Assembly (NCBI GenBank): GCA_051294905.1
Contig: CM119371.1
Span: forward strand, 3,784,001-3,848,000
Direction of reading: 5' to 3'
From: Botryllus schlosseri
Taxonomy: Eukaryota
Length of the DNA stretch: 64,000 nucleotides
In this document: piece after piece, positions 44,201 to 62,100 of the stretch
Position numbering within the stretch: the first letter of the stretch is position 1
Layout of the letters: every line of letters begins with the position of its first letter
Notes under the pieces: generated by a model
The model's input: the letters and a program-made list of their open reading frames with translations, nothing else
Told to the model about the DNA's origin: nothing
Database searches by the model: none
Made by a program: the position numbers and the translations under genes

Positions 44201-47200
44201 GATGTTAGTTATCCCAGTCTTACCTCCTATCTTAGATTAATTTACTGGGGCCAGAACCTTTCCGCACCCTGATGTTCATCAAATGCGGTCGAACAGTTTT
44301 GAGCAAGTGAAAATGTAACTGCGAACCAAAATTTTGTAATTGGTAGTTATCAGGAGCTTCTTTACTTTTTCATTTACTTTAATTTTACACACCTCATCGG
44401 TATCATCCTTATTGCCTTACCAATTACATTTCATTCACCTTACTCAGCTCTGAGTATTCATTTGAGTACATTTAATTGAATGTCTTGTATCCTATTCGTT
44501 ATTAGTCGTTGCCAGTCGCTCGAACTTTTGATTGTTAGTAGTTGCTTATAAAAATTTTATTTTTTAGTATTTTTCAGAGCTTATGATTAGGAATAGTTCG
44601 AATACGTTAAAATTTGTTTTTTCTAATTAAAGGGTAAACTACGTACTGTAGTACGAGTCATGAATGAAACATGAATAGCTTGAGATTGTTGCTAAATACG
44701 TCGCTACAGTTGTCAAAGAGCACTTATCTAGCGAATCAATCAGACTTTTACCAGTAATTGTAATTATAATTGTACTTACTTACATGTTTAACAGTAATTG
44801 TAATTGTAGTCAGGGTTCCAAAGACTCGAGTCACGATTATCTGATGACTCGACTTGACTCGAGTCATTTTCGCAAAATTCCGAAATTAATCGACTTAACT
44901 CGAGTCAATCTGTGTACTGACTCGACTTGGAGTCAATTCATTACGCATGACTCGAACCAAGTCATATGACTCGAGACTCAGACGGCCAATATCGGCATTT
45001 TATTGCAATTTCAAAGAATAGTAGAGTGACCACACTATTGAGATTTCGTCTATGGGTATTGGTACTTGAAAATGCGACCAGAAACTGCTACAAGTGAGGA
45101 AAATTAATATATCATGAATGTGAACTATTGGATATCAACAAACTGGGTTATAACAAGTGGGTTACCAAGACTTTAACTGGAAGCTGAGCGGTTAACACAA
45201 TGATTTGGACTCGAGTCATAATACCATGACACGGACTCCGCCCTCTGATCGCTGACTTGGACTTGGTCGTGACCTGAAAATGACTCGACTTGACTCGAGT
45301 CAAAACTATAAAAATGTAATCAACTTGTAACTCGGATTCTTTGTGACCAGGTTACATCCCTGATTGTAGTTATAATTTTATATTTTTAGCATACAGTAGC
45401 CTAATTGTAGTCATAATGAAATTATAACATGCAATACAGTAATTGTAATTGAAATTGAATTGAATTCATGTAATTGGTGCAACTCTGGAGGTGGCCCTAT
45501 ATTTAAATTAATACAAAGTGTACTGAATCCCACGTAGCGCCAAGAAAAAAATTCAGTAGCATAAATCTGCTATTATTGTTTATGTTTATTTGGAAAAGAT
45601 TTTGAGCGTAATTCAAGCCTTCAAAATTATGTATTTTGATGCATATATAAAAATTTCCTTCCCAACACAACGTGAACAGTGAAATTCCGAACATGTCCCG
45701 GAAAATCCAGACGGATGGCAATCCTAATAAATTGAGAATTTCGGACCATCATTCGTGTGCGCATTTTTCAACAAGAGCAATGTTAATGTGATGCAGCGAT
45801 GCGTTCGGATAACACCCACACAGCACTGCGATGATCTAAATCAGTGGTGGCGGAGGAAAAGAATGTTGTGTAATATTCAGAGGCCAAATTATACTCACTC
45901 TAGTGACAAAATTTACGCACCGAGTTCACAGGTTTGTGTAAAATTGTATCGCGAAGTAGTTCTTCATTGAAGCGAAAACCCAATGCAATATCGTTATATA
46001 CTGGTCACCCGAATATTAAAAAAGTGATAAAATATGGTGTTAATATCTGTTTTCGCAGCACTATGTCAGTTTTGGGTCACACGGTCCCTCGCCCCCACAG
46101 AAACCTGAAACAGGATTCAATATTCATGAACCAAATTACAGCGTCACCGTTTATAGGTAAATCTATCTTATTCCTCACAACGTATAGTCAGGGCTAACGC
46201 CAGATCAGAAATAAAACAATGAGATAGCGTAGAAGCATACCAAGTTATACCGTCATTAGGGCGACTGCTTCAGCGGTTTATAGGCTATATCTATTCAAGT
46301 CACAAATTGTACTTTTCAAGCGATTTCAAGGTTTGAATCCGGCCAGCTACCCAAGTTGAGTTTGACGCTTCTGATCTATATCCTACCCTCATATCGAGAT
46401 AATTTTATTCAGGCGCCAGCATTAAATGGGAAATATGTCTGAAGATGGAAAAACTAGTATTCCATGCACGATGCGATTTTAGTTGACGGATGGGCTACTG
46501 CTTTTTTTCAAGTCACTATTAGTATACTGCTGGAAGTCACGCTAGTTATAATAGACGACCTTGAACTCACACGTTGATTACACGGTCCGTGGACATGGCA
46601 CTCACCCGGGCCGGACATGGGACATACAATATACCTTCCGAGTGACATATGAATTCAGCGGTGTTTTGTGCCTAAACTCACATGTATTCTTTTTTCCAGA
46701 CACCCCGTAATGATCGACAAAAGCTCATCGTTGATGTTGCAGTTACACAAACCCAAGCTCCTCAGACTTTCACTCCTTGCTGCAAGTGATCCAACGATAT
46801 GAGTATAGAAATTAAACATGGAACGGCAACGACCGATTTTGCAGCTTCGTTCCGCTTCGCAGAGGCTGGAGAGGAGAGTGGTTTTGCGTAAGCGACTGTA
46901 GGATTTCTGGCAATCCAAAAGCTATCTTCCCGAGCCCAGAAATTATTGAATCTGGTCTTGATCGAAAGCTACTGTTGCACCGATTCCGAAAATATAAATT
47001 TAAATAATGATCAGGCACTGATCCACCTAGAATCTGTCCTCCAAGTCTGAAATATCGGCATTGTTCAGAACAATCGGGTAACCGCAACACAATGACCGTA
47101 ACAATGACCCGTTGCGACTCTCCGATTGTTCGAACAATGCCGATATTTCGACTTTGAGGACGGATTCTAGGTGGATCAGTGCCTGATCATTATTTTAATT

Positions 47201-50200
47201 TATATTTTCGGAATCAGTGCAACAGTAGCTTTCGATCAAAACCAGATTCAATAATTTCTGGGCTCGGGAAGATAGCTTTTGGATTGCCAGAAATCCTACA
47301 GTCGCTTACGCAAAACCACTCTCCTCTCCAGCCTCTGCGAAGCGGAACGAAGCTGCAAAATCGGTCGTTGCCGTTCCATGTTTAATTTCTATAATATGAG
47401 CCTCATCGCGACTCAATGAAATGTCATATGCATTGATATCGGAAATTTGTTTCATAAGATCGTCGTCTCCTGATTCATAGATTGCTGTATACAGTTCCAT
47501 GCGAACGTGCTTGTTGTCCTCCTTGAGATGCGAACGGATCGATCGGGCGAGAAATCGCTTTTTCAGCGACCGAGTTGAGACTGTCAGACAAATAATGCAC
47601 CTCACTATACGATATTACAATCGAGTAAAGAGGAACAACAGTTTTCACAGAGACACAGCCAAGCGGTAGAGTTGAAGCCATATTCGCCCACAAATGTTTG
47701 ACTCATACGCATGTTTTCACAACGACACAATGAATCCTTGACGTATGTCATTGTATCAGAACCTAAATTCGCATCGTTAAAATTTCCAATTACCCGCCAC
47801 ATATTATTCCGCTGCTTACGCGACTTGATGTACGCAGACTGACTGAATATGAAACAGTTCTGACTGGATTGATCTTTTACTGCATTGTCTTGGGACCATA
47901 GTGCGACAAAGCATGGATTCAATAAACTCATTGGATCCGTGCCCACCATACAGTCATGCGTTCAAGATCGATTTTTCTCACAAGATTCAAAACAGTGGTA
48001 CGAAGGTGCGCACGCTATCAGAAATGACATTTCTGTGAGGTCTTGATAAAACTACAGCATCGTCACTAAATCCAATATGGTTGGTATGAGCAAAAATATT
48101 ATATAATGGGCATGTTATGGACACAGTACTATTTTTGTGACTTTGCGTATTATACAGCCAGTGGTGGTGTCATGGGTAATGCTCGTATGCTCAACTGGTC
48201 TTATAACGAATCTAATGACAGTAGAGGTCGGCCGATATTGATTTTTGCCGGCCGATACCGATGATCGACACACTCACAAGGCCGATAACCGATATCATTG
48301 GCGGATATTAATTTGGCAGGAGCAGAGAACCATTTTGATAAAAATCATATATATATATCAAGCATGATGGCACTTGTACAATGTACATGCCACAGAAAGC
48401 TGGACAACAAACGAGAAAAATGAAATTAGAATGAAATATTGCTCGATTGTGCACATTCATTGAAATTTGGGTCAACCCGACAAGCAAAACATGATACAGA
48501 ATTGCTGATCAGTCGAGCAGAGGTAGCTTGTAATGTAGGGAAGCATACTTTTACTGCATGCTCACCCAGTTAAACTCGTCCTGCGACGTTTAATCTGTCA
48601 CGCATCGCTCTTGGCGTTGCCGATTTAATGAGATTGAAAACACGGAGCATTGAATTTTCAATATTTTTGAATTTGTTTTATAAATAAAATATTGGCCTCG
48701 ATGCCAGCATTTCATGGACTGATATCCATAATCGGGAAGGTTTCAAATATCGGCTTCGATAATCGGTCAGGTTTATAATCGGTCGACCTCTAACTAATAG
48801 ATTCGAAACTCCAGTCGTTACGCTGGAATCCACAATGCTGAGCATGTCAATAATAGCATAATTAATACTAGTGGGGACCAGAGTGTTAAATTCAATAAAA
48901 CTGAATTTAATCGAAAGCAGATTTTGAAAATATCAATTAAAGTTTGATCAGAGTAATGAAACCACCCCTAAATAGCACTGAAGGGTCATGAAATCGGCAT
49001 TGTTCCAACAATCGGACCGCCACAGCACAATGACAACAACAATGGTCAAATGCGTCGCGCGACCGTTTTGAACAACGAGGTATCGCGATTAGTAATCAAA
49101 AATTGGACTCAAAGCCTGACACTCAGTTCAGAATTGAATCACTCCGATACTTGATATATGATCAGACCACACTCGCACCTAGGGAAAAATGTGTGCTTTC
49201 TCACAGATTCATATTTTCAGTCTTGAGAGTAGCGGGAATACGATAACTTTTCGAGAAAATTAGCCAACATCACCGAAAACTATACTCTCCAATGGCCTCA
49301 CCTTCATGAAGGTTATCCTGTGTTTCGTCGTAAATGATGCCGCACACGAATCTGCGGACGACCGACCATCGCTCTTTGTGCAGGTCGCCATAGTTGAAAA
49401 GCATGAAAGCTGGAAGCGACATCTCAGCCACGCAGCCCGCTGCGAGGAATTCCTGAAGACTTTGATGACAGAAGAAGAAAATGAAACTGCCATCCAATAG
49501 ATTGCAACTAAGGAGGTTATTTCCTGGAACCTTCATCATGAGATCTTGAACTTCTTCTGTTGAAAGTCCAAACTTCTTCAAGTCATTTTCAGAGAATGTC
49601 ACTCTCCCTTCTTCCATGCCACGATATGCCATCGCTTTCAATTTATTAACAACTCCAGCGATAACCTTTGCATTTGTAATGTTTTTCACGCTGCTTAAAG
49701 TGGATATAATTTTTTTGTAGAGTCCTGTGACGGTCTTTGGAGGAGGTTCGTTCGGATTCTTGGCCATGATCACTGCGGTTAAGACCAGAAACACGGGAAT
49801 GGAGACTAAATTGACCAGCCTTGGTGACATTTTTTCTATCTTCTCCCATGCTTCATCCCCATGCTGACGTATCAGAAACACAAAGAGCTTCTTTGCGTCA
49901 TCTAGGGTCAGACCAGAAAGTGTGATGATGTTGGCAGGTCGTGCTTCCACAGGTAAATCCGAGACTTGGAATTCTCGGGAAGTGATGACGATCTTTGTAT
50001 CAGCGAGCAGATTACGTGAGAGGATGTTGTACATGATCGTTGCTGCGGTGGCCGAAGTAAAAGGATTTATTTTCTCGTCTCCCTTCTTATTGATTTTCCA
50101 AATGGCTTGATCCAAGCCGTCGAAAATTAAAACTGCTTTTGATTGATTTTGTAGCAACCACTGATATGCACGTTCCTCGTTGATTTCATCCGGAAAGAGG

Positions 50201-53200
50201 CCACCGAAGAGAAATTTAGATGGTTTGATGAATCCTTTATCTTGCATGCCTTTTATTTCTATATACCGTATTAATTCGTACTTGAGCTGAGAGGAGCTTG
50301 CAATGGCGTCTGTATTCGTAAGTGAATGCCCTAAAGTTCTTCTTGCGATTCTGCGCAGAAGAGTGGTTTTTCCAGATCCTGCCGACGCAACTATGGCGGT
50401 GATAGAACTTTCCCCGTAGATAAGCTGTTGCAAAACTTCATCTAGCTCGATGAATTTGTCGTCATCAACTTTTTGTCGAAGGAATCCGAACTCCTTTCTG
50501 AATTGATTTTTCACAACCTCTGTCTTTTTCCAGAAGAATAATTTTCTTTTCATCGCAACTTCCATTCCGTGCACCTCTTCATAATTGCCTTTGAAATATT
50601 CTGACCTCATCAACAGCCTCATCTGGGGATGAACTTGGAAATCTGGTTGGCTGAGATCCTCATCAGCGAAGTCTTCAAGAATTTTATCAGCCGTCGTTCT
50701 TGACGAGTTTTCGTTGATTGATTGGATCAAATCTAAACACGAGTCTGGAAGATAATTTTGGTGTTCTATAGTTATATTTTACTATGGGATATGCTGGTGT
50801 TCCAGTGTTGATTACGTTTCTTCATGCTATCTCATGCAAAGACTTCTATATTCACAACATTCAGTACGAAGCAGTTGTTAATCTTAACCAGAGTTATGTG
50901 TACCACTTGGGGATGCGCAACACCAAAGCGTTCGGAACGGCATGGAATGTGGAATTATAAGACAGTTTCAGATATTTTTAAAATCTTCCTTTGTTGTATA
51001 TCCATAACAATGGCTCTTAAACTAGGAGCCAGTTCTCTTTGGAAAGCATCAAAGACAGCGAAGTGACGGCGCGAAACCACCTCGGAGAAGTAATGTTTCT
51101 TGAACTCAGGGTGAATTTAATTTGTGTTGACACTTGCAAATTTAAACAATGGCAATAATCCCAATTACGGTAGATTACGATTCAATAGTGATCACTGCTA
51201 CATACTATCTATACACCAATGCCACACCTTGCACTGACACTCGAACACATTTTGTAGAATAGCCTACCACTTTGAATAAGCACATTTTATGGCAGCTTCA
51301 AATTACAGCCTCATGTTATCATTTCGCCGTAAAAGTGCGACCAGTAGCGAAAAATCGCTCTGGGCATACCCCCAATGTCACATTTGAGATGGGTCCCAAA
51401 ACAGTTACAACAAGCCCTTGTTGACCTAAAACGAAAAATTTTTAACCTACCAAATTAAAATATCGACATCGTTTATCTCAGAAAACTTAATTTTCACAAC
51501 ATTTTGATCTCATATATGCAAATTGGGTGTTGTTGCATATCATGTTAGAATCTTACAAGTTATCTTCATTTCTGGTCAGAACCGTCTCTCTTTACGAAGT
51601 AGTTGAGCGGAAAAAAAATTCCGACTTCAAAACTGACAAATTTATACATGACAAAAAAAATATTTCAACAAATTCTGGACCTATGAAGAATTCCAGTAGT
51701 TGTATCACACATTATAGTGAAATTACAATTTGTTGCAGTACAACGAAAAGTACTTCTCTATATTTTCGGGTAGAAAGTGTCTAAGTAGCTAACTTACTAA
51801 GTAGCTGGCATAGAGTGAAGAAAGAAGGTTCATCAGCAGCAGTTGTTAGCTGACAACACTGAAGTTGTGCATACACTGCTAGAGACACACCATGTTGCTT
51901 CATTCTGGCAATGTTGTATACATCCCAATTTTTCATCGTGCTCTTCTTGATATATATAAGATCTAATGCCCATGCAGTCTCGCTTCAGTTAGGATATTGC
52001 GGTACGTTGAGTATAACACCATTATTTATTTCATTTCAACGTTTATGATTTACATTGAGCAGACGAGGGGTCGTCTACAGCGGTAGGCATATGAAGTAGG
52101 CTACAAGCTGTAAAATGTCAAATAATAAGTTAACAACACAAAAATCTACGACACAAACGAAATGTGGGTTCCATAAAAAATCCTGACAATTTTTAAACCG
52201 AACACTACAATTTTGACGAAATTTTGACTTGATTTGACACGTAAAAATATATCACCCTAGTAAAAAAATCCATGCCCGGTACCATCATTGATGGTCCATC
52301 AAGCAATGCACTGGGATTGCAAAATACAAAAAATTATCGCACCCGTCATTAATATTCCTTGATCGGTGAAATCGTTCATTATCATTAAAGGCAGCGTATC
52401 TAAAAATTTAAGAATCGGAGGATAGGTATTTATAGAGGTTTTCATAGTAGTCAACAAGGTTTCTCATGAATTAGTAGAAGTATTCACACTGAATGTTACC
52501 CCAGGTGTAAAAGAATTTCTTTTTGAAGCAGCATAAAACTCCTTTGAGTAGATGTAGAATTTGCTGTTTCTGAAATCCGCTCATGTAAGTAAGCGGTTTA
52601 GAACGTTATCACCAATACCCTCCCATGTACAATTAAAATGTCGCAATTCAAATATGTGGACCGTGTAGAACAGAGGCCTCAAACACGCGGCCCGCGGGCC
52701 GCATGCGGCCCCCCAGAGCATTTTGTGCGGCCCGCGCCGACATTTTAGATTTTTATTAATTTGACAATATATAAGTGTCACATGTATCTAGTCAGGTTAT
52801 AAACATAAAATTCCCTCTTAAATTGCTCCAAAAGCCTGAAACTATTCATCAAACTTCACTATCACATCAATTGCAACCGCTACCATATGCAGTGAATAAG
52901 TCACTGTTCCGTAACATTTCCAATTAATGATGACAAAACCTGACCTTTAGACGATTCGTGACTGAAATTTGTGAGTTGGATTGAACGCGACCTTTCTTAG
53001 AATTACTCAGACTCGGGCTAACTCGATGGCTAAATGAAAATGACTCGAGTGGACTCGGAATGCCGTGAATTTGTTAGAACCATGGACGCAGCAAACTAAT
53101 CGCGTATCAGGGCAGTAGTAATAGATCAGAAGGTTGCAGCTCGGTATTTCGCTAACTAACTAACTAAGCAAGCAGTTATGGCAACCATTGGCAGTCTGTT

Positions 53201-56200
53201 GGTAACATATGTGGTCACTAAACCATGTTATTAGGGCCACTTAAAGCTACCGAGTACCGTAGTGGTACGCTACAACGATGTAGCAACAATGGGCCGTTCG
53301 GCATTCCGACATTTCAATCACCATGACACATTCAATAATATATTTATTTGATACATTTATATTTTTTCTGCTCCCATATTTGAAGATATTTGGCCATGAG
53401 ATTATTATTAGCCTACTTATCAGAAGTATACCCAAATCCTGGATTGGAATTACAATGCTCAACCTAAAAGTGTTTTGATATCAGATCAGTCTCTATTATC
53501 AATTTGTTAAATTCAAAATATTCATAGTAGCTACAAAATTATAACCCTATAGCTTTTATGATGGCATCATACATTAGTCCGCCCATATGGTGTCTATATC
53601 TTTTATTTTATATATATCAAGTACAAAAACAATTCAATTCCAATATTGATAGATGTGATGATTCTTTTCGTCCCAGACCTAAATTGATACAAGAGTGAAT
53701 CCGATTTTGACTATGTGTGTTTACTGACAGTCTGCTGGATCGGCTCACTTTCAATAGGACAATTCATTCCCGCCAAATAAGGCCTAATTGGAAAGACATA
53801 GAATACTCCTAAAAATGCTGCGGCCCGCGGCTTCGTCAAAACTGGAAAACTGGCCCGCGAGCACATTTGAGTTTGAGACCTCTGGTGTAGAATGTTGGTT
53901 TCGTGTTTCTACATCTCATGCAAGAGGTAGACATTTCCAATGTGATACAAATCATATCTTAGCGTGGCGTTAGAACAGTGGTTCTAGACGTTAAACCTCC
54001 CAGAACAATCCCCAAAAAGATGCCACTTTAGCGTAAAATTATACTTTCGAGTTCTTCAAAAAGTACTTCATTGCTGACCTCACATGCGTATTCATGAGAG
54101 TGTATTATTACTAGCACCTAAACAATAGAGACAGCTTTTTCAGATGACTCGGCGTTTCAAAACTGTGAATTTACTCGTGACACAGAACAAAATTCACGGC
54201 TATATCACACATAAATTAAACACAAACGAAATATTTAGAGCTTACCGCTTATGTTGACGTATACTACAAAAAATCCAATAGCAATATGCCTCTGATCTGT
54301 ACACTCCTCACATTTCCCCACCAGTGCTCACTTTCAGCAACTTTTGTATGATTTGATTCGATCAGATATAGTTTACATGCACTTATGTTCATATTACTCG
54401 TCGACTCGTCGTCAGAGCATCAAACAAATTCTGATGCCGTCATATAGTTACATGTCTTGTCAGATGCCATGACACATCGAATGACACTGATGGATGTGCT
54501 ACTGTAATCCGGCCGCTAACAGTCATTAATACCATCTTTGATCGGCAACAAATAGTCACCAACCAAACCAAATGCCAAGAACCTATGTGCGAGCCACCAA
54601 TTACAAAGCGCTAAGACACAATTAAATATCGTATATATTGATATTGAAATGAACCTGATTATTTTGGCTGACACTGACACTCGCCAGCCAACTAAACTAG
54701 TAGAGAATTGGTTGCTAGTTGCTGAGGATTACTCTTGAGGAGTTTCATCCGAAAATAATCGGGTTCATTTCAATATGGATCATATACAGTGGCGGCTCGT
54801 GACAATATCGGGTGGTGGGGCAAGGGCTGCGAGCGACTTTTATCAACATGACGTCACAATGGCGTTTTCCAACCTAAAAAAGTAACTTTAATATGATGGT
54901 CACATGAATTTCCCGACAACAGTGATTTTAACGTAGGTGCCGCGAGAGGTTTGCCGGTGAGCCGTGACTTGAAGTGTGGTAACAAATGTTTTATTCATTT
55001 TTTTTAATCAAAGGATTATTTTACATAATGTACGTGAACTAAGAATCGTCCCTATGCCACGAATCAATTATCAGGTCATCCTTAGTAGCATGCGTTATGA
55101 TTTCATGGTAGAGTTAGAGATTACGCAAATCGATAGGCCGTCCGAGAGTGTTTCGTACCCGATCCTGGTGTGTTACGACCACTGAGCTGGTGGTTACGAG
55201 TTACGACCAGGTGATAGGCAACCAAAGCGGAGGTACCCGGCGTACGATTGGATCAATGGACTGGACAATTTCTATCATCATCATCATTGGTTTATTAGCA
55301 ATTTTATCAGTTCAATACACCACAAAAATGCGATACAATGAAAAGACAGGAATATGTCGAAGCGACAAGGAGTAGTCTTCTAGACCTTTAATTTTCGCTC
55401 TAAAGGCAACTGCGTAAACTAGCCTACGTACGGAGCAAAGATTCAATACGATTCATGTTCGCACTTGACTTGACCAGACTAATTCCAATGACTAGAACTC
55501 GAGAGATTGCGTAAGCCTAACTGCAAAGGTCAACGACTTCGGACACATACGCAATTGTTATCTCATAGATTGGGCATGTCATATTGAATCCAGAACATCA
55601 ATTTGAATGGTCTTTGAAGAACTAAGGACAGCAGCCTCGGAACTTCGGTCTCGGAACAACATAGTACATTTTGGCCTTGAAACTGGAGATTGTGACGCAA
55701 CACATACGGCTTACTGTCTGCTGCCAAATCGGCGTTGGAAAATATATTAATCAATAAATACATGAATGAAAGCCGTAAACTTAGCATACTGTTACATGAA
55801 ATCATCGAGAAGTAGCATTCGCAATCTCATAACCCATTCCGGCATGGTACACTGTCAAAATCAATACAAACAGACGAACACCGAACTTTGAGTAAAATAG
55901 ATCGAGGAATAGGCTGATCGAATGATCAGCTGTTAGCCGACATCGAAAATGAAATAGCTATCGCATTTGACAGGGGATTGTAAGCAAATGGTTTGAAGGC
56001 CACAATTTCACAGTGAAATGCACATTGGCGAACATAAAATTATGTGAATATTTGAATGCAAACCGAGAATCTTAGTTAGCTGTGTCATGCGATCATCGAG
56101 ATATACCATTGGAAATATCATCACCGATCTCGTTATGGAACGCAGACTAGATTAGCACAGACAGACACCGGCTTTTCCGTGAGATCCGCAATGATGTAGG

Positions 56201-59200
56201 TAGGCTAAGTATCAGATCAGCGCGCATCTCTACCATACTCGACCTCGAAAACGAAATAACTGCATCAATCATTGAGCGTCAACTTTAAGACTTGGCACCG
56301 CGTTCGATACTAAAATCAAGACATACCGTGCAAAAGCTCATGACAGATCTAGGTATGGAACATCGTTAAAATCAATAGAGACCAATAACGGCTTTTGCGT
56401 AAATCTGTTAGCGATAAATGAAGAGTCAGCTCTCACTCGACTTTGGAAACGAAATTACCACCCACATAGTTCAGTGACAAACTTAAAACTTATTACAGCG
56501 GTCGATACCAACATTAAGACTTACTGTGCCAAATATCATGACCGATCTCGGTATGGAACATCGTCAAAATCAATGGAGACCAATACCGGCTTTTGAGTAA
56601 AATCTGTTTGCTGTACAATGTACATGATAGATCAGCACACACTGAATTTCGGAAACGAAATTACCACCCTTATCTTTGAGTAGCAAGCCTGAAACTTGGA
56701 GCAGTGCTAAATACTACCTTCACGACATATCGTACCAAGTTTCAAGAATTATCATGGTGCGAAACACCGTCAAAATCGACATATACCAGCAAAGGTCGAG
56801 TCAACGCATATCACGGTAACCGAGTTCAGATATAGATACGATTGTTACATCACACCTTAAGGGCGACAGGCATAGTTGCCCCACTTGCTCGGCCATTTTA
56901 CGAATAGGAGAGAGTAAATCACCGTTTCTTTATTGTGCGCGGCTTTGAGAGAATAGATAGTGAAAGCTTGTTATGAGCGCTACCGGGGCAAGCCCCGACT
57001 AGGCATTCACAAAGCGAAAACACAGAAGAGAATTCGATTTTCGCAGAGACTTCGCTATGAATGGGCATTTGTTAGCGAAAGCACAAGAATAATGCGGGTT
57101 TCGCCGTGATCTCGGTATATACTGATTGCTGTGCGTCTATAAATGGTTAAATTGTTATTGAACAGAATTTTAGGTGGGGCAATGCCCCAGTTGCCCTATA
57201 GGACGAGCCGCCACTGATCATATACTATCCAACTGCATATTGAAGTTATGTACCTTCAAAAATTTCTAAAGTTCTGACGACATGAACTTGTTTTGATCTG
57301 CTGTAACGCCTCATTGATTATACCATAGATATCCCAAAGCTTGCACATAATGAATACACTAGGCCTGATGTTATAATAAATCTCCAGACGGGACGGCTTC
57401 CGTTGAACGCGGTATCCAACCCACCTTGGCGTGTACGACATATTTCCTTCATAACATCGGCTGACTACTATATAAAGTTCGATCTCTGCGTGACTGCTGG
57501 AACGTGCTGCAACTCTGGAAATTTCAATACATTACAGCTCCATTACGGTGGCGTTCTGAACAGAACGGCTGCGGCTTCGACATCTTCATGTCCATTCATT
57601 GTATCGCATTTTTTTGTGGTGTATTGAACTGATAAAATTGCCAATAAACCAATTATGATGATGATGACATGGAAAGATTGTTACATTTGATCATGTTTTT
57701 GGGGGGATTCAATTTCAAAAATGAGCATGAAATTGTATATCCAATTTGACGTGCGCAATACGACCGACTCCTCATGGGCCAGATGTCACAATTCCATTGC
57801 CTTTCAAAAAATTTACCAATAGTTGAAGAAGATTCTCTCGGTGGGAGCCATTTTCTGGCGTATGTTCTAAGCATTAGTGTGATGGTGATCAGCAGCTATA
57901 TAGAGTTAAATCTGGCTGAGCTAAATAAATTTGTCATAAATTTGAATTTACCAAAGGAATCTGCACTTATTGTAGATTTCATATAAAAAGCAAGGCGTGT
58001 TCTCGGCACCAATACCACTTCTTCACCTCCGAACCTTCTTTTGTCTATTGTGTCGTTGTTCAAGGTCTTATAGAGACATTCGGAACTGTGAATTGCGCCT
58101 CCTTATGTAGGCATCAAGCCTCAAAGCTGTTTTATCGCACAATACAAATCATTGTTCGTCTATCTCCGTATCTGGTACAACTATGCAAGGGGTCTTACGA
58201 AATTATTAAACATTTGATTTCAAATTTGGAAAATATTGTTCAAACTACTCATTTCCCATGTACGTATTCCCCATGTACTATTGCATCAAGGCATCGACTG
58301 TGTACTTCGTTGTGGTTTTTCTATTTTCGTTTTTTGTACAAACCACCATAACTAGTAAGCAGTAGTGTATGTATCTATTCTATATACTTGTTTCTAAGCT
58401 CCTACATTCCGGTTTGACATGAATGATCGTAAGGATCATATCGCCGGCACCTGTCTATACCGTTATAGAGCCAGTTACACGCTATAATTACTGCGTATGT
58501 GTTGTTATTATTACTGTGTGTTATTTTGTTTTGTTGTGTATATTTTTTTTTTGCATACTCATTCTGTTTATTCCGGTTGACGAAGAAATAAATCTCTGTC
58601 TCTATCTCTTACTCAAACATGTGAAGTTTCCGTAGATTTTGAACTCATAAATATGCTACTGGTTCAACTGTCTAGAACTACGAGGTATCCTTGTTTTATT
58701 TGCGAATGGGACAGTAGAAATCATTCAATTAAACGTAAGTGGCCGATGAGGGAGTATCTTGCACCAGGCTCTACAACGTTTCAGAGCCTGCTCTGGTCGA
58801 CAGATCTAACGTTGTATTTCCCCAATGATAGCCTATATCAAACCATCTCATGAAAAAGTTTTCTAAATGCTCTTTTCAAAGAGATTTCACGTTATTAATG
58901 CATCCACGAAAAGTTTCCTCAGTCGAGTTAATACAATAGACTATGTATATTTGTTGTACCTCGATCAGAACACTCACCAAAACCCCCTATTTCCTGTTAG
59001 GAAAGCGTATTTGGAAAAGCTACATGACTATCTTTAATGGAAGTTGCATCTAAATTTCTTGGAAACACCAAGGATCGTGATTATTTGGAGGGTAGAGCTT
59101 AAGACAATGAAACCTCCAATCCAATAAAGTAAGGATGGGGCTTTGTTGGACGCCAGTGCCTCACCAACTATGAACCTCACCGCACGTCACTCGTGTACCA

Positions 59201-60556
59201 TAATTTTTTAAGGGTGTAGTACTAGGCTCAGGTTTTATTGGTATACTGGGGAGTTCCAGATCCAGATTACAATGGACTCGCCATCACAATCCATATTACA
59301 GTGGATTACCTCGAACCTTTGCGATAAGGTATGTGTGAACAAGTACGTTATCCTTTGACGTCACGTGACGCCATATTGCTGATTACAACCCCACTCCCTA
59401 CACTTCAATATTCACGATACCCAGTTACGACTCAGGCCAGATTATGCCACAATGCTAAAGTACGTGCCGACAGCAATCCCGACAATCTATTCGGCATCTG
59501 ATTCTCTCATCAAGTCACAATTTTTCGCAAAAATCGAATAACATTTTTGCTCAAAAACTGCTATGATAAATATCTTAAGTTACTAATAATAGCATATGGA
59601 TCTCACCGAAATACCATTGAAAAGCCGTAACTTGCAAATGATATATCTAATTGAAGTTTTGCATGCTCAAATAAGGCAAGCAGCATGATTAGTAGGCTAC
59701 AGGTTTTTACGGACCTAATGTGGCGCACACGACGAATCCCATGTATATTGGGTTCGAATTAGTTCTAGCATGACGTCACGACTTTTAATTATGACGTAAC
59801 AGATTATTGACATGTATTACTCTTTGGGAGTTTGAACGAGAAAATAGGGTCAATATGGCTCTGCGCAAAAAAAGAGGTTCCCGACCCCTGCTTTAAATAT
59901 TTGGCCACATGATCGAGCAATCGCGGTGCTTGAATGAAATCCAGGTACATCGTCTCAAAGTTCATCACTAATGGCCTTCATTGCGTTTAATCGAAGTACC
60001 AACATGATGATGCCCCATAACACTAACAAAATTATCATGACTACTTTTTCACACATTTTGCTAGTCCTTGAAAAAGTGCCTCGAGGTGGACCATTCTCCC
60101 CAATTGAGACCCCATATCGGATGAAAAATCATTCAACTTACCATGACTCGATGGAGTAGCTTCTCCTTCAGAACTGGTAAAGTTGAACACATTTTTTACG
60201 TTCGTCTGATTTCCGGCCACAAGGTTAACCGGGCTCTTGGTGAACATCAGATTAACATTTTCACCTTGAGCCAAGGTTGCAGATCCTAAAACACAAGTGA
60301 GTATTGTACTGCGTGCCTGGTTACATACATGTTATTGTCATTAAATAAATTGGGATTATATTATATTCTTCGGTATTTTTCTGTATATTCTTTACACAGC
60401 GAGCGAAATGTGCTGAATTTGAATAACTATACAACTGTTTAATAAGTGGTCTGCGCTAAAAAACAACAGAAATTACTTACCCCTTGCTTGCGGTGATAAT
60501 GACGCAGGCATTTCTTCAGCGACACCAGAATCATGATCTTGACCCCCTTCTGCCAT
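29206..60556 (-). CDS. Multi-exon NLR (RHIM-like motif / NACHT / degenerate LRR), ~919 aa if the exon-4 transposon is removed; this allele is disrupted
   Basis: Manual model: join(60481-60556, 60142-60285, 49302-50744, 46682-47580 minus a 597-bp insertion, 43298-43402, 40708-40809, 40048-40203, 37421-37588, 34424-34613, 31298-31349, 29206-29227). All junctions are GT..AG with intron phases 1,1,1,0,0,0,0,0,1,2, giving 2760 nt in one open frame. The terminal exons are less certain than the NACHT exon. Confidence 0.7.
31298..31349 (-). CDS. Putative small exon (VDREPDAWKRLDMDFHR)
   Basis: ttatttcag acceptor, gtgagt donor, phase 1 to 2, compatible with the upstream exon. Confidence 0.5.
31779..32088. 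mobile_element. Charlie-like hAT MITE
   Basis: Right end GGTTGAGAACCACTG; TSD ATCTAAAG/ATCTATAG. Confidence 0.7.
34424..34613 (-). CDS. Putative NLR C-terminal exon (IEYTRCILPYPASLDDISSLVNNSNLKKVTMVYW...ELEVLK)
   Basis: ctcactgcag acceptor, strong aag|gtgagt donor, open frame, LRR-like NSNLKKVTM. Confidence 0.6.
35137..36750. mobile_element. hAT-type element with ~500-bp diverged TIRs and a ~580-bp unique interior
   Basis: TAGGGGTGTTC...AACACGCCTA; arms ~35137-35660 and ~36240-36750; partial TSD (cctagcac/aggagcac). Confidence 0.8.
37421..37588 (-). CDS. Putative degenerate-LRR exon (LDLLDIAVNGLIPVQDYSRILERG...EACRQNK)
   Basis: cattttag acceptor, gtagta donor, 168 nt, phase 0-0, LxxLDIxxN pattern. 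Confidence 0.6.
37884..38123 (+). repeat. Recent 125-bp-period tandem duplication
   Basis: Two near-identical ~112-bp copies separated by a short partial copy (tgcgtgcacagta). Confidence 0.9.
39080..39320 (+). repeat. Dispersed repeat; inverted copy at ~57320-57560
   Basis: Shared gcagagatcgaactttatatagt.gtcagcc.atgttatga.ggaaatatgtc in opposite orientations. Confidence 0.8.
40048..40203 (-). CDS. Putative NLR C-terminal exon (DSNLTLNRVYAAADVAFLGILFDAEFIKFKEQIQLLANQDDLQKLSECKLNK)
   Basis: ttttgcag acceptor, gtatta donor, 156 nt, phase 0-0. Confidence 0.55.
40708..40809 (-). CDS. Putative NLR C-terminal exon (VVKLTVEEIWLAELKNEEDVIMISRGVLGHFTIK)
   Basis: ttcag acceptor, gttggt donor, 102 nt, phase 0-0, open frame. 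Confidence 0.5.
41291..41790. mobile_element. hAT MITE
   Basis: TAGGGCTGGA...TCCAGCCCTA termini; TSD decayed. Confidence 0.65.
42304..43153. mobile_element. Older diverged member of the TAGGGCTGTT hAT MITE family
   Basis: Inverted arms; TSD AAGCAGAG/ATGCAGAG. Confidence 0.8.
43298..43402 (-). CDS. LRR exon (VKKVDLRGNKLSATALRSLLRHRRIESLSGKLDWE)
   Basis: ttccag acceptor, gtgaga donor, 105 nt, phase 0-0, LRR pattern VxxVxLxxNxL. Confidence 0.8.
44811..45362. mobile_element. GACTCGAGTC-rich hAT MITE nested in a TAATTG-rich element
   Basis: CAGGG...CCCTG termini; perfect TSD ATTGTAGT. Confidence 0.9.
46682..47580 (-). CDS. HD2/first-LRR exon of the NLR, split by a transposon
   Basis: Reads VSTRSLKKRFLARSIRSHLKEDNKHVRMELYTAIYESGDDDLMKQISDINAYDISLSRDEAHI, then the TE, then VGSLAARSESLRSLGLCNCNINDELLSIITGCLEKRIH. 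Contains an LxxLxLxxCxI LRR. Acceptor ctgacag, donor gtgagt. Confidence 0.85.
46804..47393. mobile_element. 590-bp foldback (near-palindromic) non-autonomous DNA transposon, P-superfamily-like, inserted in the NLR exon
   Basis: Termini TATAGAAATTAAACATGG...CCATGTTTAATTTCTATA, near-identical arms, perfect 7-bp TSD ATATGAG (46797-46803 and 47394-47400). Confidence 0.9.
48222..48792. mobile_element. hAT MITE with CCGATA subterminal repeats
   Basis: TAGAGGTCGGCCGAT...ATCGGTCGACCTCTA termini. Confidence 0.8.
49302..50744 (-). CDS. NACHT NTPase exon of the NLR
   Basis: 486-aa ORF with Walker A ASAGSGKTT, Walker B AVLIFDGLDQ, sensor-1 IVITSR, IPVF and winged-helix motif FFFCHQSLQEFLAA. Acceptor ttccag at 50745 and donor gtgagg at 49301. 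Confidence 0.95.
52671..53884. mobile_element. Charlie-like hAT element
   Basis: CAGAGGCCTCAAAC...GTTTGAGACCTCTG termini, GCGGCCC subterminal motifs, perfect TSD GTGTAGAA. Confidence 0.9.
54787..57216. mobile_element. 2.4-kb non-autonomous hAT element with internal ~200-bp tandem repeats
   Basis: CAGTGGCGGCTCGT...ACGAGCCGCCACTG termini, perfect TSD ATCATATA, diverged repeats at ~55840-56790. Confidence 0.9.
58635..59090 (+). pseudogene. Degenerate CMC/Chapaev3-like transposase fragment
   Basis: Frameshifted translation gives LLVQLSRTTRYPCFICEWDSR..IKRKWPMREYLAPG and EKATWLSL..ASKFLGNTKDRDY. These match the GYTKYxCFLCxWDSR and AWxSFxxVVxNFLGN motifs I recall for this family. Confidence 0.7.
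60142..60285 (-). CDS. Second coding exon with RHIM-like motif (GSATLAQGENVNLMFTKSPVNLVAGNQTNVKNVFNFTSSEGEATPSSH)
   Basis: Acceptor gtgttttag, donor gtaagt, 144 nt, phase 1-1, open frame that joins in phase to the NACHT exon. Confidence 0.65.
60481..60556 (-). CDS. First coding exon of the NLR (MAEGGQDHDSGVAEEMPASLSPQAR)
   Basis: ATG in ACCATGG Kozak context, consensus donor gtaagt, phase 1 matching the next exon. Confidence 0.65.
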
Positions 60557-60902
60557 GGTATTAATAGCGTGGTACTAATCAGCTAGCGTATATGACAATA
60601 CTGGAAATATATATATCAATTACATTTCGTAAAGGATTATGTACATCATGTCGTGACTATCAGTTCCAACTGATATGATGCATCTGATAAATATGTTATA
60701 TATCAGCAATTCTCAGCCGCCAAAATTGAACCGGTGTCGGTCGGTTTCAAGTTTATCGCCGGTCGGTCAAATATATTACAATATCACATATCAATTGAAA
60801 ACGCACGAGGATGGTCCCTTGTCTAGAGAAATGGAACGTCAAATTTGCAAATGATCTAGGATTTAGGAATACGGAATCCGTTATGTTGTAATAATGTGCA
60901 TG

Positions 60903-60985
60903 GCAGTGGCGGCTCGTGACAATATCGGGTGGTGGGGCAAGGGGTGTATATGCGATTTTTGTTGTCCAAATGACGTCACACTGGC
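60903..60985 (+). mobile_element. Left end of a second CAGTGGCGGCTCGT-family element
   Basis: First ~38 bp identical to 54787; the right end was not found in the window. Confidence 0.7.
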
Positions 60986-61981
60986 TTATTCCGGTGTGAA
61001 AATGTGACTTCATGGTGGTCGCACACATTTTGTATGGGGTATAGAGTATAGACATTAGGCATGGTTAACTAGCCTTACGTATTTCAAATTATTGGGAAGA
61101 AAACATGAATTACAGTAGTTATTGCCTGCATATTTTAACGTTTGTATCAGTAGCCTAATGCGCGCGGCGTGATTTCATAGTTGCAAAATGTTCCGTGATG
61201 AATTAATCTCGAATAACTAGAATGACACCGCTGAGAAGATATCTTTTCACATCCCGATTCTAAGGAAGGCCCCGGTGCGCGTTAATGTGCTAAAATCACG
61301 CTCGGATTGTGCAGATAAAATCGGGGTGGACAATATGGTAATGAAAAAGATAGTTGCTGCTGCAAAGTTGATAGGAAGCGATTTTTTGACTATAGGAATT
61401 TTGAAAGTTCACTAGTGGTTAGTCCTGGGTACTGCTTCGGAAAAATGTATTGGAATATAAACTCGAGCCGAGCAATGCCGACCATCGGGTAATATTGATC
61501 GAGACACTGTTTGCAGCAGACTACATGCTTCAGATCACGATATCTTATTTCGTTTCAACTAGAGGCACTGCCTCTGGTACCAGCACTGTAAACGTGTATA
61601 ATAAGGCGTCATTATCCTCGCTCATACGTCAGTCATTCATTTTTATCGAAATAAGATAATAGTCCCCTTTCCTCCTGCGTACGATTATATCAATGGCATC
61701 AATGATATGATAGCCATCGAAGTTAGGGAATTTTTAGATTCTTACTGCACTAACTCAATGACTATATTCACGATATTGCAGATCGATTTGCAAGAGAAGC
61801 CGCAAACATCGCAAATGAAACCACGACCTACGATTTACCGCTAACAGACGCGACAACGTTACCCAGCAAACACTCGATTTCCAGTTGACTTCCTGCGGAA
61901 TAGCCGCAGGGCGCCCAGTGTTACTTCCCTGGAGTGGATTTGTCGACTACTAGAAGCGTCCTAAACACTTCCTGAGTTGGT

Positions 61982-62100
61982 CTACTATGGACGTGAAGCT
62001 ACTCCATATGGACTCTTTGGATCTGCTGTGAACGTGACTTGACTCCCTATGGATGCGTCAGACCTACTGTGGACGTGACGTGACTCCCTATGGATATGTC
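61982..62100 (+). repeat. ~41-bp tandem repeat, 3 copies
   Basis: ctac/gtrtgracgtga..tgactcc.tatgga units. Confidence 0.7.

Follow-up and report, generated by a model that had tools for sequence, protein, structure and literature searches.

A spliced N-terminal tail before the NACHT domain of an ascidian NLR gene in Botryllus schlosseri

The DNA analyzed here, referred to as the window, is a stretch of 64,000 nucleotides from Botryllus schlosseri (GenBank assembly GCA_051294905.1, contig CM119371.1, positions 3,784,001 to 3,848,000 of the forward strand), and its minus strand harbors an NLR gene in which two short exons precede the exon that encodes the NACHT domain. The gene begins with a short tail at the N-terminal end, followed by a pre-NACHT segment, NACHT, winged helix/HD2, and LRR-like sequence. 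The reading that we favor, at slightly better than an even chance, is that this is a real ascidian NLR with a tail typical of its family, and that this tail belongs neither to the RHIM motifs nor to the death fold.

Exon structure and splicing of the gene

The start codon was located at 60556-60554 on the minus strand in the context ACCATGG, with an in-frame TAG 21 nt upstream. The parts of the gene from its promoter side to intron 3 are as follows (positions are those of the window).

60608..60615, minus strand: putative TATA box TATATATA, 52-59 nt upstream of the ATG
60481..60556, minus strand: exon 1 (coding portion), MAEGGQDHDSGVAEEMPASLSPQAR and the opening base of a Gly codon; donor GTAAGT at 60480; the X1 contig has the joint 60284/60480
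60286..60480, minus strand: intron 1, 195 nt, GT..AG (CT..AC on the plus strand); the X1 contig joint skips 195
60142..60285, minus strand: exon 2, 144 nt, (G)SATLAQGENVNLMFTKSPVNLVAGNQTNVKNVFNFTSSEGEATPSSH(D); acceptor TTGTGTTTTAG, donor GTAAGT; the X1 contig covers 60145-60284
60179..60274, minus strand: N/V-rich core of exon 2, LAQGENVNLMFTKSPVNLVAGNQTNVKNVFNF, 32 residues, read as one unit of the form NV.h...S.VNh.[AG]G[NS][QE] from its resemblance to Styela N-termini
50745..60141, minus strand: intron 2, 9397 nt, without a domain-coding open reading frame (ORF); the X1 joint skips 9405 with 8 letters between
49302..50744, minus strand: NACHT exon, 1443 nt, phase 1 at both ends; acceptor TTATCTTCCAG, donor GT at 49301-49300
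47581..49301, minus strand: intron 3, 1721 nt, GT..AG; X11 contig joint 47580/49302, side 81

Exons 1 and 2 together supply 76 + 144 = 220 coding nucleotides; therefore, they meet the NACHT exon in phase 1, where the split codon G|AC leads on into the NACHT frame. The NACHT exon is translated into 480 residues, which include the pre-NACHT segment, the Walker A motif GSGKTT, NACHT, the winged helix, and the start of HD2. Its 3' end lies at 49302, which is a small correction to the initial annotation of this DNA and is confirmed by the X11 joint.

Four public sequencing runs were aligned over window positions 45000-62000. One contig of run X1 (record 1, 411 nt, depth 7.7) consisted of 50563-50739, 8 letters, 60145-60284, and then the sequence from 60480 onward, reaching to about 60566, ~10 nt upstream of the ATG. 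Both exon junctions were thus contained in a single contig, with shorter joint sides of 140 and 86 letters, and mRNA is the best explanation for a contig that lacks both introns. The eight junction letters have the expected length (50740-50744 plus 60142-60144) and keep the frame, and four of them differ from the window. These differences and the other mismatches in the contig (given below), at equal length and in the same frame, indicate that the contig derives from an allelic copy or a close paralog whose exon structure is the same; the contig documents the splice pattern of this type of gene and not strictly that of the window haplotype. In run X23, the sole run on record as RNA, of which ~6% was read, no reads were found on exons 1 and 2 and very few on the NACHT exon.

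The exon structure of this ascidian NLR gene is genuine. The initial annotation had proposed two short exons with a Kozak ATG, consensus splice sites, and an in-phase junction to the NACHT exon, and both the sequence and the X1 contig agree with this model; the 27-mer that it quoted from exon 2 was recovered exactly at 60259-60179. Its two junctions (60481/60285 and 60142/50744) are both present in the X1 contig and hold for the type of gene; for the window copy itself they are less secure, the contig being non-identical to the window and its run only presumed to be RNA. Its statement that no intact CARD, PYD, or DD exon lies in between was likewise borne out, by Pfam-negative ORFs and by the X1 contig, in which exon 2 is spliced straight to the NACHT exon. 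Pfam returned no family for 135 of the 136 window ORFs of at least 70 aa (the NACHT ORF was left out), and no match above cutoff for all 81 minus-strand ORFs of 30-69 aa in the 9.4-kb intron 2 or for 31 of the 73 downstream ORFs of 30-69 aa; below-cutoff matches to unrelated families in nine short ORFs were read as chance. By Pfam, the window contained no CARD, PYD, DD, DED, TIR, or other domain exon, and the tail itself gave no death-fold match. The window gene therefore has no recognized effector-domain exon, and intron 2 consists mostly of high-copy repeats, as seen from the depth profile and inverted repeats.

The NACHT exon and the N-termini of its ascidian relatives

The NACHT exon matched the Pfam families NACHT (56 bits against a cutoff of 26.7, E 5.5e-15) and NOD2_WH (27.6 bits against a cutoff of 23.1, E 3.1e-6), and a match to NLRC4_HD2 (15.5 bits) remained under its cutoff. 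Among the longer database proteins, the best named relative was the 'NLRC5-like' protein P0004 of Styela clava (908 aa; E 1.9e-71, 35% identity, 97% coverage), the best named S. clava relatives were 35-38% identical, and fish NLRs ranked later, the first at E 1.9e-17. An exhaustive search of representative sequences yielded 687 proteins at E<=0.001, the best of which were contig ORFs with up to 50% identity. Names were obtained for 17 of the 30 representatives looked up, and 16 of these came from S. clava, Clavelina lepadiformis, or Phallusia mammillata and one from a fish. With Pfam cutoffs passed and ascidian relatives ranking best, the NACHT identity and the animal origin given in the initial annotation are upheld, the animal being a tunicate, and these comparisons place the window gene in an ascidian, tunicate-specific NLR clade.

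The S. clava paralogs P0004, P0136, P0139, P0141, P0146, and P0277, which are annotated as 'uncharacterized' or NLRP/NLRC-like, share several features with the window gene, including a NACHT region with 35-38% identity across almost all of the exon, a common pre-NACHT segment (..EP.FEVNP..) and post-NACHT exon, the lack of a death fold, and N-terminal strings rich in N/V/I/T/Q/E such as ENVSVLTEKANIAAGNETNVQ and SATYLQAEQDANVEIASSNIHMTAGEAT. In contrast, the Styela N-termini comprise 120-500 residues with several modules, whereas the window tail comprises 73 residues with one unit, and the similarity between the tails is marginally above chance. No death fold was found in the Styela relatives, either by Pfam on P0004 or in the precomputed domains of the others. 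Their N-termini are composed of short strings rich in N/V/I/T/Q/E/H that alternate with P/Q/A-rich linkers, for example QEGANVNILGAHIDELHAGHVNQIV... or RNVNLKISNEDVLVAG and SATYLQAEQDANVEIASSNIHMTAGEATITKGKGATTHFHGPVNINI, and ...ENVSVLTEKANIAAGNETNVQAAEVSV... in P0004; they contain NVNL..., ...LVAG, and ...AGNETNV. Similar short stretches occur near the N-terminus of remoter ascidian NLRs, namely, IGNQTSVNF in Clavelina P0196 and NIGNQTIYQQNNY in Phallusia P0201. Strings centered on GN[QE]T can accordingly be listed for the window (VAGNQTNV), Styela P0004 (AAGNETNV), Clavelina P0196 (IGNQTSVNF), and Phallusia P0201 (NIGNQTIY); among 151 proteins, only P0004 matched the strict GN[QE]TN-type patterns. 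Pooled, 63 N-terminal regions were 1.3-1.6x enriched in Gln, Pro, Ala, Asn, and Thr and depleted in Leu, Cys, and Phe compared with the remainder of their proteins.

The arrangement of the Styela module differs from protein to protein. P0277 (S. clava, 1140 aa) contains a module of ~70 residues three times, together with one truncated copy, before NACHT, which indicates that copy number varies among paralogs. Several S. clava proteins have no NACHT domain: P0281 and P0282 (302 and 306 aa) consist of the N-terminus and the pre-NACHT segment, and P0278 (661 aa) consists of the N-terminus and LRRs. P0287 (195 aa), also without NACHT, is truncated and holds the N-terminal module. The NACHT-less forms could be decoys or adaptors, or artefacts of annotation or pseudogenes.

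Structure prediction was applied to two of these N-termini. AlphaFold2 on Styela P0281 with 20 paralogs gave a mean predicted local distance difference test (pLDDT) score of 30.4 and no strands, and on Styela P0131 with 8 sequences a mean pLDDT of 37.3, with even NACHT modeled poorly and N-terminal helices of low confidence; at most, these models suggest that no globular domain was recognized. The ESM Atlas gave no usable match for residues 1-185 of Styela P0139.

Another N-terminal string, distinct from the above and better conserved, G.V.I..AP.[FY][YH]..[HY]D.R.Y.D.RE[YF].Q.[DE][IV].[DN]S, was observed in P0171, P0187, P0200, and P0208. In P0171 and P0200, it is located upstream of a TIR-like domain (recognized by eye) and NACHT. 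P0171 is a protein of C. lepadiformis, and its first 200 residues, which include this string, had no Pfam match.

The N-terminal tail and its possible roles

The core of the tail begins at residue 29, measures 27-32 aa depending on where its ends are drawn, and lies between S/E/P/G-rich flanks. Its 27-mer is composed of 26% Asn, 19% Val, and 11% Phe with one Gly, and holds Pro, Gly, and eight Asn/Gln. Searches with the exon-2 peptide were largely empty: none of 14 candidates among the longer database proteins reached E<=10, in a collection that seems not to include the B. schlosseri proteome; the best ESM Atlas score (0.86) was under the 0.9 level, with recognition also short of its mark; and PDB sequence searches with the peptide or an alignment gave only chance matches to beta-rich proteins (PsbO at E 0.28, alpha-glucosidase and avidin at E>1). 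The 64-kb window yielded no further copy of the exon-2 motif.

The tail was then compared with the Styela N-termini directly. In a MAFFT alignment, the window sequence SATLAQGE-NVNLMFTKSPVNLVAGNQT lies beneath the Styela string SATYLQAEQDANVEIASSNIHMTAGEAT. A hidden Markov model (HMM) of six Styela module-B segments scored 5.1 bits on the window peptide, which was equaled by 17 of 2000 composition-preserving shuffles, and in local alignments with 13 Styela N-termini, seven had real scores that were reached by <=23 of 500 shuffles. Smith-Waterman comparison with 63 pre-NACHT regions gave z>3 in four and z>2 in seven, and C-terminal control stretches of equal length gave z>3 in one and z>2 in one. 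Furthermore, when the whole 47-residue peptide was shuffled 20000 times, the real score was reached 14 times for P0004, 21 times for P0136, and 43 times for P0271; shuffling the 32-residue core equally often gave 2 (P0004), 7 (P0136), 29 (P0288), and 175 (P0139). These results suggest, weakly, that the window core resembles one unit of the Styela N-termini in the order of its residues, beyond composition. The order-dependent resemblance appears to be real but faint, at the limit of what a low-complexity string of 30 residues can reveal.

A number of observations weigh against a family-typical tail or weaken the case for it. A profile of the second Styela module type scored 3.8 bits, which was reached by 82 of 2000 shuffles, and for six of the first 13 Styela N-termini compared, the similarity did not exceed that of shuffles. 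As to the motif conservation that the initial annotation had made a condition of its reading, a weak order-dependent similarity was thus seen for some Styela N-termini and no excess for others. Correction of the whole-peptide shuffles for 63 comparisons leaves the best p-values at ~0.04-0.07, which is marginal, and the four targets of the core shuffles were picked after the first test had been seen. The two best alignments land on different Styela strings, which fits a repeated unit of ~20 residues, NV.h....S.VNh.[AG]G[NS][QE], a pattern that was written after the alignments had been viewed and carries no statistical weight. Among its paralogs, the Styela module is no better conserved than the linkers, by a crude count on an alignment disturbed by repeats. 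Hydrophobic periodicity is absent from the window 27-mer (hydrophobic moment, p 0.93), and both AlphaFold2 models are of low confidence, so that beta structure is neither supported nor excluded by them. As to the gene copy, 9 of 177 and 4 of 140 aligned letters of the X1 contig do not match the window (~95-97% identity), the RNA label of run X1 is a guess, and the window haplotype may be non-functional.

With these points taken into account, we still put it a little above even that the N-terminal region of the clade is neither death fold nor RHIM, a judgment made jointly with the identity of the gene as a real ascidian NLR carrying a family-typical tail. The 'missing' N-terminal domain of ascidian NLRs would on this reading be a spliced, coding, family-typical tail, and hence a concrete peptide to test. 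As to its role, it is possible, if rather doubtful, that the tail is an effector-side element for homotypic beta-pairing. NACHT oligomerization would gather the tails together, and the gathered tails could pair via short beta-strands, with Asn, Gly, or Ser turns bridging them; the pairing partners would be the like tails of family members or tail-only isoforms, and not an identified non-NLR protein. A more far-reaching version, which we hold to be unlikely, is that ascidian NLRs swapped the death fold for one to several Asn/Val-rich beta-arch units of ~20 residues and non-RHIM type, which would undergo NACHT-nucleated cross-beta assembly among family members and tail-only isoforms; this would constitute a second, RHIM-independent animal amyloid motif, with the window gene as a single-unit 'nucleator' like fungal NWD2. 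If ascidian tail units do self-template, they would offer a positive case in a chordate; if they do not, the gene would be an ordinary lineage-specific NLR with a low-complexity leader.

The alternative that survives best, and that we consider a genuine possibility although well short of probable, is that the tail is a disordered low-complexity leader without a signaling role. Exons 1 and 2 would then be retained because of the promoter and start codon that they carry, with the receptor working via its NACHT and LRR parts or via adaptors bound elsewhere. This would agree with a 2024 survey that, in the excerpt available, describes ascidian NLRs as NACHT-LRR or NACHT only, with no N-terminal domain (PMC11508797), with the failure of AlphaFold2 to find a fold in the Styela N-terminus, with the weak similarity across genera, and with the lack of any family, PDB, or ESM Atlas match. 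Against it, the order-dependent similarity to the Styela N-termini exceeds that of composition-matched shuffles and of C-terminal controls, N/V/I/T/Q-rich N-terminal stretches recur in the NLRs of three other ascidian genera, and Styela retains the module, with a copy number of one to several and also in tail-only isoforms.

The initial annotation had read the tail as a RHIM/cRHIM-type motif that templates amyloid onto a non-NLR partner after NACHT oligomerization, which now seems improbable. The Pfam RHIM family (PF12721) gave no match at E<=10 in the exon-2 peptide, in a search that had no positive control and in which HMMER filters drop most matches above E 0.1, nor, under the same filter limit, in 14 N-terminal pieces of related NLRs. 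The core common to RHIM and fungal PP motifs is given in an excerpt of a published account as G-(I,V)-Q-(I,V)-G (PMC7885112). Neither this core nor a hydrophobic-Q-hydrophobic-G sequence is present in the tail, which reads ...PVNLVAGNQTNVKN... and ...TLAQGENV... and contains L-V-A-G-N-Q-T. PDB sequence searches at E<=10 returned no RIPK1, RIPK3, or HET-s chain. In favor of the RHIM reading are the N-terminal position on an NLR, the S/E/P/G-rich flanks, and an Asn-rich sequence with a Gly turn and short hydrophobic strands, as found in amyloid signaling motifs (PMC7885112, in excerpt). RHIM-NACHT proteins are moreover on record in amphioxus (Kajava et al., 2014; PMC4262963), and tunicates yielded no RHIM according to the same source. 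The claimed likeness to RHIM/cRHIM is thus not sustained, and RHIM membership of the tail is not supported by these comparisons.

The non-NLR partner fared no better. Of 8000 candidates scored with a profile of the Styela module and the window peptide, 17 proteins reached E<=1. All 17 come from S. clava and derive from NLRs: a NACHT Pfam domain is present in 13, and four are truncated or NACHT-skipping (P0278, P0281, P0282, and P0287). No kinase, caspase, pore-former, or other non-NLR partner was among the 17, in a search of limited sensitivity whose profile was dominated by the Styela module, the window row adding little, and whose collection did not include the proteome of B. schlosseri. A partner sharing the motif, as the initial annotation had envisaged, was therefore found neither there nor as a second copy in the 64 kb.

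Short motifs before NACHT are known from other systems. Kajava et al. (2014; PMC4262963), in the part available, describe amphioxus proteins with a RHIM in the place of the death fold, including a RHIM-NACHT-repeat architecture that they liken to fungal NWD2, and state that tunicates appear to lack RHIMs; since amphioxus RHIM-NACHT proteins have already been described, an animal NLR with an amyloid motif is no new idea. These proteins (e.g., BF82280; PMC4262963, in excerpt) and the window gene are alike in being NLR-type proteins of invertebrate chordates in which a short, in the window gene putatively non-globular, motif stands in the place of the death fold, but the amphioxus motif is a recognizable RHIM, whereas the window tail has neither a RHIM match nor the core tetrad. 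The fungal NWD2/HET-S, HRAM, PP, and sigma motifs and the bacterial BASS motifs are short, N-terminal, Asn/Gln/Gly-rich, located before NACHT, and not predicted to be globular, and the window tail may be of the same general kind, its non-globular state being judged from the low-confidence AlphaFold2 model of a Styela relative. They differ from the window tail in having a motif-sharing effector, usually encoded next door, which was looked for here and not found, and they have no sequence relation to it. For the RHIM of RIPK1/RIPK3 and the cRHIM of Drosophila Imd/PGRP-LC, the likeness is limited to general composition (hydrophobics round Gly, with Asn nearby), and their I/V-Q-I/V-G core and profile match are absent here. 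No published account of such tails in tunicate NLRs was found in full-text searches assessed by titles and abstract openings, which does not prove absence.

The fish NLR P0239 (Betta splendens, 2186 aa) has an N-terminus, ...YLNNVHVGNNLIISVNQTV..., that appears RHIM-like by eye (V-H-V-G-N-N-L). It had no Pfam RHIM match at E<=10.

It is very improbable that the N-termini of the clade are helical, coiled-coil-like oligomerization segments of which the window tail is a degenerate remnant. AlphaFold2 did place long helices at residues 87-134 and 188-223 of the Styela P0131 N-terminus, but at pLDDT 24-33 in a model that is poor as a whole; some Styela segments showed hydrophobic periodicity at 140-150 degrees (e.g., module A, p 0.008), but the helical period of 100 degrees was found in no segment (z -1.0 to 0.7), and the Pro, Gly, and eight Asn/Gln within 27 residues of the window core also speak against a helix. 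Finally, it is hardly credible that exons 1 and 2 are foreign to the gene, whether as a chance ORF, as an assembly artefact, or as exons that belong to another gene. The spliced contig is not identical to the window and X23 had no reads on these exons, but exon 1, exon 2, and the NACHT exon are joined in frame within one contig at the predicted consensus splice sites, and the string that opens exon 2, (G)SAT..., is matched in alignment by Styela NLRs.

Exon 4, its foldback insertion, and repeats

Downstream of intron 3, exon 4 is interrupted by an inserted element.

47394..47580, minus strand: first portion of exon 4 (..STRSLKKRFLARSIRSHLKEDNKHVRMELYTAIYESGDDDLMKQISDINAYDISLSRDEAHI), which is collinear with Styela NLRs
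46797..47393, no strand assigned: 597-nt foldback element (palindromic, of the type of miniature inverted-repeat transposable elements) in exon 4, including one CTCATAT copy
46682..46796, minus strand: second portion of exon 4, LRR-like (VGSLAARSESLRSLGLCNCNINDELLSIITGCLEKRIH), with its GT donor at 46681-46680; collinear with Styela ISSVMRRSGNLNLLRFSECNLTTELFDIMMSNLK

The arms of the foldback element, 46804-47047 and 47150-47393, are inverted, 244 nt long, and 98% complementary, and the element is accompanied by a 7-bp target duplication, CTCATAT. It brings in an in-frame TAA at 47308-47306. Without the insert, the frame of exon 4 runs on into VGSLAARSESLRSLGLCNCNINDELLSIITGCLEKRIH and the GT donor, and the LRR-like stretch after the insert had a weak, below-cutoff match to LRR_1 (E 0.098). 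No further LRR exons were found downstream by tblastn, or by Pfam in 31 of the 73 ORFs. With the insert, 220 + 1443 + 275 nt make up 645 codons and a stop, and the window copy as assembled would yield a protein of 645 residues without LRRs. The X1 and X11 contigs both skip exactly 597 nt, with a shorter side of just 21 letters, which makes the evidence for an empty site weak.

Other repeats were observed in and around the gene, and no Rfam family was found in the window. An element of ~2.4 kb in intron 2 (55274-57665) is bounded by terminal inverted repeats of ~90 nt (55274-55363/57574-57665) that are 88-96% complementary. Given also the very high depth in all four runs, this element probably represents a high-copy DNA transposon, and it contains a 198-nt tandem duplication at 56300-56669. 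Upstream of the NLR gene, a 41-nt tandem repeat occupies 61982-62095, with 2.8 copies and 76% matches.

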